A DNA stretch of 64,000 nt. Source: an uncultured Bacilli bacterium (GTDB taxonomy: Bacteria; Bacillota_I; Bacilli_A; RF39; UBA660). Shown here piece after piece: positions 4,296 to 21,248 of this stretch. The notes under the pieces were generated by a model that was given only the letters and a program-made list of their open reading frames with translations, ran no database searches and was not told where the DNA came from. The DNA is taken from NCBI GenBank assembly GCA_947585595.1, contig CANPXB010000005.1:7483-71482 (forward strand), in the 5' to 3' direction. A program made the position numbers and the translations under genes. Within the stretch, counting starts at the first letter, position 1. Every line of letters begins with the position of its first letter.

Positions 4296-7200
4296 ATGAA
4301 GATTATGTTGATGGATGCTACAAAATTAGTAAATTTAACTCTTCCTAATGATGTATTTGGTAACTACTGGATAGTTAATGCTAATAAAGAAAACTTAGTT
4401 AGTGTTGAAGCATCTGACGGCAACTGGGTATTAAAAAGTAATAGTGAAGTTAAAGTATTTAGAAATGGAACAGCTGTTGATGATACTTTACTTGAATATG
4501 AAAAGTTTTATACCCTTAAGAATGTATTACTTGGGGATAGTTATGTTATTTATACTTGTCCAGTCTATGATGAAAATGCTTTACAATTAAATATATCTAT
4601 AAATAGTTTAAATGGAAATAATACTTGGTATATAGGTAATAATGGAGCTCAACTTGGTGATGGTAGTTCTAATTATCCAAATATTATTTCTTATGAGCAA
4701 CCAGGAGTAGCAAGAAATCAATTAAAGTTAGATTATAATAGCGGGGTTTATTCTGTTACAAATATAAATCCGCAAATTCCAATGTATGTAAATGGAGCAC
4801 CAGCAACTAGTGCTGATTTAAGATATGGTGATACAATTTTTATTTTAGGTTTAAAATTATCAATTATTAAAGATATCTTTTATATTAATAATCCTAATAA
4901 ATTAGTTAAATTTGATTCGCAAATGTTTAATATGCGTATGGTTCCTGAATTAGATTATTCTAAGATTCCAACTGAACCAGACCCAATTATTGAAATGTAT
5001 AAAAAAGAAGATTATTTCTTAAAGCCACCTCGTTTTGATGAAAGATTAGAAGAAAAGACTTTAGTAATAGATCCACCTCCAGCTGCCCAAAAGCAAGAAG
5101 AAATGCCAGCTATTTTAACAATGGGTTCAATGATGATGATGGGTATGAGTTCAATGATGACAGGAATTATGACTTTAACGAATGTTATTAATGGAACAAC
5201 TGAGTTATCTTCAGCTTTACCTTCTTTATTAACAGCAGCAGCAATGCTTTGCTGTATGCTTGTTTTACCAACAATTAGTAAAATGTATAATAAACATAAA
5301 AAAGTTGTTTATGAAAGAAAAAGACAAGCTACTTATAGTAACTATGTAAATAAAAAAAGAGAAGAATTCTTAACTGAAATGAAAAGAGAACAACAACTTT
5401 TAATTGAAAAATATATTCCATTAAAAGATGTTGGAGATATTATTCTTTATAAAAAGAGAAATTTATGGGAAAAGAATGTTGATGATTATGATTTCTTATC
5501 TTTAAGATTAGGTATTGGTTCTATTCCACCATTCTTTACAATTAACTATCCTGATGAACACTTCTCAATGGAAGATGAAGATAACTTAATGGGATATTTA
5601 AGAGAACTAGAAAAAGAAACAGATTTACTTGAAAATGTTCCAGTTACTTATTCTTTTGTGGAAAAATATATAACTGCTGTAATAGGGCAGAAGAGTGTTA
5701 CTAATCCGTTCTTAAGAGGATTATTACTACAAATCTTTGCTTATCATGGCTATGATTCTTTAAAGGTATGTGTATTTACAAATAAAGAGAATGAAAAATT
5801 CTGGGAAGATATTAAAGATTGTCCTTATTTCTGGGATGATAATAGAACAATAAGATTCTTTGGTACTAATACTGATGAAATTAGTCAAATAAGTTCTTAT
5901 TTTGAAGAATTACTTAGTAGTATTAAAGAAGCTAACGAAGATAGAGATACCCTTGGAGGACAAAAAGCAACAGCTAAGTTAACAACGAGATATTTAATTA
6001 TTACTGATGATATTGATTTGGTAAGAAATGTTAGTGTTATTCGTTCATTAATTGAATCAGTAGAATATGTTGGTATTAGTTTAGTTATATTTACAGAGAA
6101 GTTAAATTCTTTACCAAATGAAGTTGAACACTTTATCAGTGTTGATGAACGTACTGGTGGAGTATTTGAAAGAGTATTATCTGATAGTAGAAGAATTAAC
6201 TTTGTACCAGATTTTATGTATGGATCGTTAGAAAAATATACTTATGTTTTATCTAATATTCCAATAGCATTAAATGGTGGTAAGTTCCAATTACCAGCTT
6301 CATATTCTTTCTTGGAAATGTATAATGTATCTAATGTTAATCAATTAAATGCTTTAGCCAAATGGAAAGAAAGTGATCCAATTAATTCACTAGCTGTTCC
6401 AATTGGAGTTAATGAATATGGTGATTTATTTAAGTTAGATTTACATGAAAAAGCTCATGGACCACATGGTTTAATTGCTGGTATGACTGGTTCTGGTAAA
6501 TCAGAATTCATTATTACGTTTATTTTAAGTACAGCAATTAATTTCCATCCATATGAAGTACAATTTGTATTAATCGACTATAAAGGTGGAGGTTTAGCTG
6601 GAGCTTTTGAAAATAGAGAGACTGGTCTTAGATTACCACACTTAGCAGGTACAATTACTAACTTAGATGTTAGTGAGATTAATCGTAGTTTAGCTTCATT
6701 ACAAAGTGAGCTTAAAAGACGTCAAGCAGTATTTAATCAAGCCAGAGATAAAGTTGGTGAATCAACAATAGATATTTATAAATATCAAAGATTATATCGT
6801 AATGGTCAAGTAGATGAACCAGTATCACACTTGTTTATTATTTCCGATGAGTTCGCTGAATTAAAAGCTCAACAACCAGATTTCATGAACGAACTTATTT
6901 CAACAGCACGTATTGGTCGTTCACTTGGAGTTCACTTAATCTTAGCAACACAAAAACCTAGTGGTGTTGTTAATGACCAAATTTGGTCCAATGCGAAGTT
7001 TAAAGTCTGTTTAAAAGTTCAAGATAGATCAGATAGTCAAGAAATGATTAAGAGACCTGATGCGGCTTCATTAAAAGAAACTGGACGTTTCTACTTACAA
7101 GTTGGTTATGATGAATACTTTGCAATGGGTCAATCTGCTTGGACTGGCGCCCCTTATTATGAATCAGATGTTAGAAAGAAGAAAGTTGATAATTCAATAA

Positions 7201-20972: not shown

Positions 20973-21248
20973 ATGAAAGAAAAATATTTGCCAATCGGTA
21001 GTGTTGTCTTACTAAAAGGTGGTACACACAAAATAATGATTAATGGATATTGTGCAGTGGCTACAGAAAGAAAAAATAAGACTTTTGATTATCGTGGATG
21101 TCCTTATCCAGAAGGAATATTAGAATCTAATGGAGTTGCTTTATTTGATATAGATCAAATCGATAAAGTATGTTTCACAGGATTTAAAAATGATGAGTCA
21201 CTTGACTTCTTAGATAAATTAGAAGCTGTTACAGCTAATAGAAATTAA
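20973..21248 (+). CDS. DUF4176-like protein, copy 3
   Basis: 91 aa, TAGGAGAAAGGG RBS. Signature YLPIGSVVLLKGGTHKIMINGY...FDYRGCPYPEG...FDIDQIDKVCFTGF. Confidence 0.7.
   Translation: MKEKYLPIGSVVLLKGGTHKIMINGYCAVATERKNKTFDYRGCPYPEGILESNGVALFDIDQIDKVCFTGFKNDESLDFLDKLEAVTANRN

Follow-up and report, generated by a model that had tools for sequence, protein, structure and literature searches.

A putative minimal type VII secretion locus built around EssC and a small ubiquitin-like protein in an uncultured gut Bacilli bacterium

How might a type VII secretion system (T7SS) operate when the locus encoding its EssC ATPase carries none of the membrane proteins EssA, EssB and EsaA? This question is raised by positions 4296-21248 of a 64,000-nucleotide stretch of contig CANPXB010000005.1 (the whole stretch is hereafter the window), which comes from an uncultured gut bacterium of the Bacilli, a relative of Candidatus Coprovivens. 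A first-pass annotation had described a T7SSb-like locus at these positions and offered three readings of it: a pared-down machine, novel partners in place of the missing parts, or missing genes located elsewhere in the genome. The first is the best supported, through a pair of adjacent genes, essC and a gene for an 85-amino-acid (85-aa) protein, that is universal among related loci and under purifying selection, whereas the proposed substitute parts did not hold up. On balance, these positions probably contain a working T7SS locus of the EssC/FHA (T7SSb-like) kind that represents a further, minimal variant, with two linked machinery genes, no EssA, EssB or EsaA, and a strain-variable cassette.

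The locus comprises 19 open reading frames (ORFs), all on the forward strand and with few gaps between them (intergenic gaps of at most 162 bp), and its GC content is about 28-34%. It is flanked by thrS (2449-4212) upstream and helD (21389-23452; NF041464, 491 bits) downstream, and holds essC, the 85-aa gene, about ten WXG100-superfamily genes or domains, three DUF4176 genes and four larger cargo-like proteins (914, 456, 314 and 837 aa). Terminator-like sites are more numerous than expected (15 found versus 4.9). Every item of the first-pass annotation was recovered where it had been placed, on this single strand and between housekeeping genes, with essC coming first, a hairpin following it (8962-8985) and a further terminator-like hairpin lying downstream (14265-14290). 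Large candidate substrates were present as claimed. The features around the conserved gene pair are as follows:

4211-4229, forward strand: terminator-like hairpin ending thrS, overlapping the TTG at 4224
4296-8963, forward strand: essC (TsxC), 1555 aa, with an FHA-type N-terminus, two transmembrane (TM) helices, a DUF/stalk region and three FtsK-like ATPase domains (TIGR03928)
8962-8985, forward strand: hairpin 3' of essC, with a 10-bp stem and a weak T tail
9125-9382, forward strand: second conserved core gene, directly 3' of essC, for an 85-aa putative ubiquitin-like, YukD/EsaB-like protein (TsxB), assigned from a structural model and from its relatives

The EssC-type triple ATPase was confirmed by the NCBIfam model TIGR03928 (T7_EssCb_Firm), which it matched with 981 bits against a cutoff of 778, and by Pfam FtsK_SpoIIIE (1.1e-44); residues 311-985 align to Bacillus subtilis YukB (PDB 9qks) at 6.6e-126. 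Its start was set at ATG 4296 because the alternative TTG 4224 falls inside the thrS terminator hairpin, and a 1555-aa EssC was also called by gene callers on two metagenome contigs, L001 and L002. The window protein alone gave no Pfam FHA match above threshold, and a single-sequence PDB search with its N-terminal 318 aa returned no match to the N-termini of YukB or Staphylococcus aureus EssC, even at E<=10. Pfam FHA was matched by 11 of the 14 aligned EssC homologues (best 1e-15), and a profile of the N-terminal family retrieved GarA (4e-8), the FHA domain of Geobacillus EssC (5fwh, 5e-5) and the S. aureus domain 1wv3 (0.33) from the PDB. In the window protein, the phosphothreonine-binding residues are lost, G-N and A-R-N-Q replacing G-R and S-x-x-H. 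Judging from its sequence, this EssC is a TsxC with FHA domains whose phosphopeptide sites have degenerated, the same state as in T7SSb; the curated model, the alignment to YukB and the FHA domains of its homologues all place it with T7SSb ATPases. The first ATPase domain, D1, has intact Walker A (GMTGSGKS) and Walker B (DEFAEL) motifs, and the Walker A motifs of D2 (GMADSGKE) and D3 (without GK) read as degenerate.

To which genes does the conserved part of the locus extend? One scan of species-representative genomes yielded 34 related loci from about 30 species-level genomes, with EssC proteins 36-95% identical; all are uncultured gut metagenome-assembled genomes (MAGs) labelled Bacilli, Candidatus Coprovivens, 'Tenericutes', Erysipelotrichaceae or Clostridia. 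ORF clustering revealed only two universal, adjacent families, EssC (34/34) and the 85-aa protein (30/34, the remaining loci being at contig ends). The pair always follows thrS in the close clade. In the distant clade it can stand alone among housekeeping genes, as in locus L030, where it lies between rsmE and serS-fmt, and in locus L028 it is followed by two tiny ORFs only. Relative to a related locus (L007), dN/dS was 0.043 for EssC, 0.072 for the 85-aa gene and 0.042 for thrS. Because purifying selection on the pair is as strong as that on thrS, the system appears to be maintained rather than decaying. A decaying, non-functional T7SSb remnant in a reduced genome might be suspected from the missing accessory genes, the degenerate Walker A motifs of D2 and D3, and a lineage labelled 'Tenericutes' or RF39-like. 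We give this explanation very little credence: degenerate D2 and D3 sites are also found in functional EssC proteins, the D1 motifs are intact, the 1555-aa ORF is intact in the window, EssC is kept in all 34 loci with a dN/dS of 0.04 that equals that of thrS, and the cassettes are diverse, intact and actively exchanged.

The second member of the pair had been annotated as YukD-like, a claim that receives weak and indirect support from the fold of its model and from its relatives, the window protein itself giving no direct YukD match. Its AlphaFold2 model (pLDDT 72; beta-beta-alpha-beta) was matched by Foldseek to ubiquitin-like folds only, including the Ubl domain of EccD5; YukD itself (2bps) came sixth, with a Foldseek probability of 0.77 and TM-scores of 0.43-0.45. 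A family profile recruited 446 representatives among 1.84 billion proteins, and 17 of 81 diverse relatives found with it matched Pfam YukD (PF08817; best 1.3e-7). Together with a position that always adjoins essC, in 30 of the 34 loci and with all four absences at contig ends, the predicted fold favours a YukD/EsaB-type ubiquitin-like protein. Within the core unit of B. subtilis, the FHA domains of YukB and its DUF domain hold YukD between them, and YukD stabilises YukB for assembly with YukC (PMC12637312). By analogy with YukB-YukD, the 85-aa protein would probably clamp the FHA and DUF regions of EssC, and the strict pairing of the two genes suggests that the same clamp is kept here.

A contig from the same species, L002, is 99.3% identical to the window over positions 1-9382 and ceases to match it right at the stop codon of the 85-aa gene (window 9382/9383, L002 10258/10259). 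The L002 genes past this boundary are about 30% identical to those of the window, or unrelated; everything downstream, including a pair of 105-aa genes that come first and occupy the place where one would look for a core EsxA, can therefore be regarded as an exchangeable cargo module. The boundary resembles a sharp recombination point for cargo exchange, and no integrase or repeat was noticed there. Some close relatives also have additional genes between thrS and essC that are missing from the window. One is a gene for a 409-aa protein without a Pfam match (L007 8680-9909, L008 8675-9904); another is a whole extra cargo unit (L013 6520-9898, L023 5598-9888), made of a WXG-like gene, a gene with the A-type domain described below, a 72-aa gene and a gene for a protein of 803-1013 aa that has two TM helices at its C-terminus.

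Are the accessory membrane proteins truly missing? In T7SSb, EssB/YukC combines a pseudokinase domain, a central TM segment and an extracellular domain, EsaA/YueB is polytopic, ~1000 aa long and has a large extracellular domain, and EssA/YueC is small and crosses the membrane once. None of the ORFs of the locus matched EssB/YukC (PF10140, TIGR03926), EsaA/YueB (TIGR03929 and Pfam) or EssA/YueC (TIGR03927, PF10661), and no small ORF of the locus has a hydrophobic segment. Their absence from the locus, as first annotated, is thus upheld by Pfam and NCBIfam and recurs in the 34 related loci. YukC, EssA and EsaA were likewise not found among 72 large proteins encoded downstream in 22 close loci (all 14 Pfam families listed), among additional ORFs adjoining essC in relatives or 10 hand-picked neighbours with TM segments or of unknown nature, or in the best 25 of the 88 Pfam families matched by 75 neighbours of the distant loci; the families seen in these neighbour scans were WXG100, RHS and unrelated ones.

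The same results bear on whether this might be an ordinary T7SSb that is split, with essA, essB and esaA elsewhere in the chromosome and the present locus forming the ATPase and effector half. Such an arrangement would be in keeping with an EssC that scores as a T7SSb EssC and retains FHA-type domains, which in B. subtilis contact YukC (PMC12637312), with cargo types typical of T7SSb (WXG partners, DUF4176) and with the fragmented state of MAG assemblies. We nevertheless consider it unlikely. In characterised T7SSb, essA, essB and esaA cluster with essC (PMC11217815), whereas none of them is linked to it in 34 loci of wide identity range, including loci with a 10-kb flank on each side. The N-terminal 318 aa of EssC lack a sequence match to YukB or S. 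aureus EssC, the family profile reaching 5fwh only at 5e-5 and 1wv3 at 0.33, and a precedent is offered by T7SSc genomes, in which no unlinked T7SSa or T7SSb components were found (Garrett et al., PMC11217815). The minimal variant that we favour could also be taken further, to the claim that an EssC oligomer and its ubiquitin-like clamp are all the dedicated machinery and that no accessory membrane subunit exists anywhere in the genome; this extension we put forward tentatively, as a possibility with rather more against it than for it.

A T7SS without EssA, EssB and EsaA has precedents. Garrett, Higginson and Palmer (2024) defined T7SSc to T7SSj, all of which are without these three proteins and share TsxA (WXG100), TsxB (ubiquitin-like) and TsxC (PMC11217815). 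The general idea is therefore not new, which lowers the surprise of the present finding. By its predicted gene content, the locus fits none of the published types T7SSa-j. That dataset was drawn from RefSeq and its supplements contain none of the taxa considered here (PMC11217815), and the literature searched yielded no later subtype ('T7SSk').

The closest likeness is to T7SSb as known from S. aureus Ess and B. subtilis Yuk/Yue. Common features include an EssC that passes the curated model, with an FHA-type N-terminus and degenerate phosphothreonine residues, a separate small protein with a predicted YukD/EsaB-like ubiquitin fold, small proteins of the WXG100 type, DUF4176 chaperones, and effectors that come with partners and have helical targeting domains at the N-terminus. 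In contrast to T7SSb, EssB/YukC, EsaA/YueB and EssA/YueC are missing from the locus and from the 34 related loci, and none was seen elsewhere in the window when translations were read; essC is followed by the yukD-like gene, without esxA upstream and without a strain-conserved EsxA; and no LXG domain, known toxin domain or immunity gene could be recognised for the large cargo. The LXG-Lap-Ltc modules of T7SSb resemble the cassette in combining small helical partners, DUF4176 and a larger effector whose N-terminal domain is helical, and in being polymorphic and exchanged between strains. They differ from it in that the large proteins here have no Pfam LXG domain, the DUF4176 genes are of the small type and lie 3' of the effector, and immunity-type genes are lacking.

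Among the other subtypes, T7SSg of Acetivibrio and Paenibacillus has a similarly very small predicted core, consisting of two WXG100 proteins, the ubiquitin-like TsgB and the ATPase TsgC (PMC11217815). TsgC is without FHA, whereas FHA is present here, and T7SSg has a DUF5050 beta-propeller protein, TsgL, and adjacent Tad pilus genes; neither DUF5050 nor Tad families were found by Pfam in the locus or in those of its relatives. T7SSf, T7SSi and T7SSj of Clostridia and Vallitalea share an FHA-bearing TsxC that clusters near T7SSb and a ubiquitin-like TsxB (PMC11217815), and T7SSi also has WXG100 genes variably placed beside substrates, with no clear core TsxA, much like the locus described here. 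Unlike the present locus, however, T7SSf has the PPM phosphatase TsfF, the DUF6382-FHA protein TsfJ and the AAA+ protein TsfV, T7SSi has EspG-like, kinase-like and LytR proteins, and T7SSj has a kinase and the Ig-like TsjI. More generally, a membrane Ser/Thr kinase (TsxD) and an Ig-like protein (TsxI) characterise T7SSd, T7SSe and T7SSj, and an EspG-like TsxG and a kinase-like TsxM characterise T7SSh and T7SSi (PMC11217815). Pfam detected no PPM phosphatase, DUF6382-FHA, AAA+, EspG-like, kinase, Ig-like or LytR family in the window locus or in those of its relatives, and every ORF of about 280 aa in the locus carries a WXG-type N-terminal domain, although an EspG-like fold was not structure-tested for each ORF.

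Several observations weigh against a working two-gene variant. T7SSb assembly needs YukC/EssB, EsxA is considered essential in T7SSb, and an EssC that retains FHA domains may still bind some partner. No strain-conserved core EsxA was seen, the WXG100-like genes of the locus being confined to the variable cassette, and all WXG100 matches in the window lie below the curated cutoffs (best 23.5 against 27.3 for PF06013 and 28 against 44.85 for TIGR03930). The 85-aa protein itself matched YukD in none of the Pfam, NCBIfam and PDB sequence searches, and Foldseek returned nothing for its model at E<=0.001. No known toxin domain and no polytopic or small immunity-like gene was recognised in 4296-21248. 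Finally, the comparison with published subtypes was one of gene content rather than of TsxC phylogeny, and the searches for accessory genes covered the loci only, so that essA, essB, esaA or genes for novel partners could be unlinked.

What, then, would the two-gene machine export? The cassette that follows the 85-aa gene encodes a series of small proteins:

9398-9715, forward strand: 105-aa WXG100-superfamily helical protein, 'A-type', first gene of the cassette (WXG100 2e-4 and TIGR03930 1e-5, both below cutoff)
9733-10050, forward strand: 105-aa 'A-type' helical protein, paralogue of the preceding one (hhalign 98%, iterative hidden Markov model (HMM))
10141-10437, forward strand: 98-aa WXG100-like protein with SWSGDNY (WXG100 0.012 and ESAT6_2 2e-5, both below cutoff)
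10453-10866, forward strand: 137-aa protein with an A-type WXG-like domain at residues 31-131 (HMM and hhalign)
10870-11136, forward strand: 83-88-aa helical protein; relatives have a gene of about 80 aa at this position
14452-14751, forward strand: 99-aa WXG100-like protein with IWSGPDADEF (WXG100 6.7e-5 and TIGR03930 1.8e-6, both below cutoff)
14769-15071, forward strand: 100-aa helical protein, distant kin of the A-type WXG-like domain (hhalign 95% to the N-terminus of the 314-aa protein)
17544-17954, forward strand: 136-aa helical protein, found in 6 loci

The three proteins with a W-x-G turn that had been annotated earlier (SWSGDNY, IWSGPDADEF and, in a larger protein listed below, HWVGEDYDAY) are indeed there and fit the WXG100 family in motif and length, with scores that are real but below cutoff; six relatives in other loci matched WXG100, with E up to 2e-5. 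The further small helical proteins were found as well. For the 99-aa gene, the ORF start at 14356 is an N-terminal over-extension, and the gene call on L001 also gives 99 aa. Local iterative HMMs and hhalign produced two related WXG100-superfamily groups. The W-x-G group takes in the 98-aa protein, the 99-aa protein and the N-terminal part of the 456-aa one, and the A-type group takes in the 105-aa paralogues together with segments of two longer proteins, residues 31-131 in the 137-aa one and residues 5-100 in the 314-aa one. An hhalign probability of 90% connects the groups, the value obtained for the first 105-aa protein (9398-9715) against the W-x-G family. Even in L002, from the same species, the 105-aa pair is just 30-33% identical, with 33% for the first of the two. 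Relatives have the A-type domain joined to C-termini of 85 to 816 aa; such variable fusions, as deduced from sequence, are a signature of polymorphic effectors, of which the 137-aa protein is a predicted short form. The 83-88-aa protein is likely a partner or targeting factor for cargo, and the 136-aa protein is probably a cargo partner.

The larger proteins, the DUF4176 genes and the hairpin between the two cargo units are the following:

11124-13868, forward strand: 911-914-aa candidate effector without TM segments, with a low-complexity C-terminal tail and no Pfam match
13887-14261, forward strand: small DUF4176 protein of the Ltc-type chaperone family (PF13780 1.3e-27)
14265-14290, forward strand: strong terminator-like hairpin between the two cargo units, 3' of the first DUF4176 gene
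15165-16535, forward strand: 456-aa candidate effector with a WXG100 domain (HWVGEDYDAY) at the N-terminus and a beta-rich domain at the C-terminus (199-456), joined by a Gly/Thr/Gln-rich linker
16555-17499, forward strand: 314-aa polymorphic effector-like protein with an A-type N-terminus (5-100) and a small alpha/beta domain at the C-terminus, joined by a weak hydrophobic helix and a disordered linker
17975-20488, forward strand: 837-aa candidate membrane-active effector with hydrophobic helices (70-124), a shared middle domain (417-647) and coiled-coil repeats
20503-20955, forward strand: small DUF4176 protein (PF13780 8e-25)
20973-21248, forward strand: small DUF4176 protein (PF13780 3.6e-25)

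The N-terminal domain of the 456-aa protein (residues 10-90) matched the W-x-G family HMM at 1e-24 and WXG100 at 0.0011. The 914-aa and 837-aa proteins have in common a middle domain of about 240 aa (residues 452-694 in the former; HMM E-values 1e-83 and 1e-61), and their family, which counts 23 members over 18 loci, is confined to this lineage and carries no annotation. The shared domain is followed in both proteins by 'SKWS-E-AV-EYN-AVK' coiled-coil repeats (12900-13200 and 19600-20200). Residues ~700-914 of the 914-aa protein form a long G/N/S/D/P-rich low-complexity tail, and the ORFs 13231-13503 (forward strand), 13288-13485 and 13310-13591 (both reverse strand) are probably artefacts of this repetitive tail. 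LXG (PF04740) was not matched by any of the 914-, 837-, 456- and 314-aa proteins, and only a 105-aa protein reached it, at 0.0015, below cutoff. With no toxin domain or immunity-like gene recognised, the cargo may not consist of classical antibacterial toxins. The three DUF4176 genes reported earlier proved well above the PF13780 cutoff (87-96 bits against 25; E from 1e-25 to 1e-27), and each lies 3' of a large effector gene. On sequence they belong beside T7SS effectors with the DUF4176/Ltc family, whose chaperone role they may be expected to share.

Could the 314-aa or the 837-aa protein, or both, be new structural subunits that replace EssB and EsaA? The first-pass annotation had named these two as the obvious candidates. 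Clear hydrophobic helices do lie close to the N-terminus of the 837-aa protein, the only ones among the cargo (a hydrophobic hairpin at residues 70-124), the protein has a long helical remainder, and the 914/837 family occurs in 18 of about 22 close loci. Yet as a substitute for EsaA it was rejected: its TM region is found in 6 loci only, its 914-aa paralogue is without TM segments, and it is followed by two DUF4176 genes. As for the 314-aa protein, its supposed TM segment is a weak, Gly-rich hydrophobic stretch (Kyte-Doolittle <1.5). It was rejected as a substitute for EssB on account of its N-terminus, a helical A-type WXG-like domain of the WXG100-like cargo family rather than a kinase fold (HMM 2.8e-20 and hhalign 99.8% against the 137-aa family). 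Its homologues fall into 43 clusters with variable C-termini and have no Pfam match. Its orthologues are 47% identical in one close relative with an EssC identity of 95%, and 41% identical and without a predicted TM segment in another (EssC 94-95%); its dN/dS was 0.38. PDB profile and Foldseek searches found no EssB and nothing meaningful, a weak structural test since the AlphaFold2 model, all-helical at the N-terminus, is of low confidence outside the C-terminal domain; the case against EssB thus rests mainly on the WXG-like N-terminal homology and the conservation pattern. Neither family occurs in the distant essC loci, and neither protein is linked to EssB or EsaA by Pfam, PDB or Foldseek. 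In the window, both genes come after the position at which the L002 match stops and everything past the 85-aa gene is replaced. They behave as cargo, and a role as replacement machine parts is very improbable.

Under the two-gene reading, the observed gene content and conservation lead us to infer the following assembly and export steps. EssC oligomers, stabilised by the ubiquitin-like protein, would form the membrane conduit or export machine. The small WXG100-superfamily proteins likely pair with cargo and target it, and such WXG-type pairs, like the effectors with an N-terminal WXG-type domain (the 137-, 456- and 314-aa proteins), would dock on the ATPase domains of EssC. The 914-aa and 837-aa proteins would be two large paralogous effectors, each followed by small DUF4176 chaperones that could hold on to hydrophobic or disordered stretches of the effectors up to their export. 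Members of the DUF4176 family act as chaperones for toxins, the small ones stabilising membrane-depolarising toxins such as TelD and probably covering their membrane-inserting helices (PMC12478183). By analogy, the 837-aa protein and the two small DUF4176 proteins encoded after it may represent a membrane-active effector with its chaperones; its hydrophobic helices are most likely effector helices shielded by DUF4176 before export, and probably not an anchor of the machine.

The identity of the T7SSb channel and the contribution of EssA, EssB and EsaA are still unresolved in the field, and the 2025 YukB-YukC-YukD structure captured no hexamer. A lineage that keeps essC and a yukD-like gene under strong selection, with a rich exchangeable cargo, could serve as a minimal reconstitution system in which the sufficiency of EssC and the ubiquitin-like protein for export might be tested. 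If the two-part machinery held genome-wide, this would be the smallest natural T7SS, with an EssC able on its own to form an export channel across a Gram-positive membrane. The present locus carries the range of T7SS variants, published as a to j on the basis of RefSeq isolates, into uncultured Bacilli that are abundant in the gut, and adds a large set of uncharacterised candidate secreted proteins, which may shape gut microbial or host interactions.

As for the neighbourhood, thrS and infC are often adjacent in Firmicutes. They are about 21 kb apart here (infC at 25581-26105), separated by the T7SS island, helD and a gene for a 634-aa coiled-coil metallophosphoesterase (23467-25371), and in about 20 related genomes the T7SS locus occupies the same site after thrS. 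Rfam at gathering thresholds detected neither a T-box leader 5' of thrS (2178-2449) nor an L20 leader 5' of infC (25371-25581); a 14-bp terminator-like hairpin just 5' of thrS (2386-2418) may belong to a diverged leader. RNase P RNA class B (44192-44524, 263.7 bits) was the sole Rfam family across the whole window. Upstream of thrS is a gene for a 543-aa serpin with an N-terminal hydrophobic anchor (547-2178; PF00079, 6.7e-51), 69-72% identical in the closest relatives and undetected at this position in most others. The window starts within a DUF7192 gene, the C-terminal part of which is encoded by 118-477. In five related loci, the serpin is preceded by genes for a 767-aa AAA_5/AAA protein and a DUF7192 protein (L002 1-1353, L008 1566-4869), both probably unrelated to T7SS. 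The AAA_5 protein was rejected as an analogue of TsfV, as it occurs in these five loci only and is separated from essC by the serpin gene and thrS.

Between 26 and 64 kb, where translations were read without an HMM scan, the genes appear to be housekeeping ones (rplT, ftsAZ, the sigE region, stp/prkC, recA, rny, ffh and others). A PP2C/PASTA-kinase pair (33706-36209), the sole PP2C and kinase genes of the window, was considered as a candidate regulator of the T7SS and set aside: by its translations it looks like a housekeeping stp/prkC pair between rlmN and rsgA. A 901-aa ORF lies directly 3' of recA (46924-49629). SpoIIGA-like and sigma-E-like genes were read at 30384-31867, in a lineage often labelled 'Tenericutes', which hints that sporulation genes are retained in a small genome.

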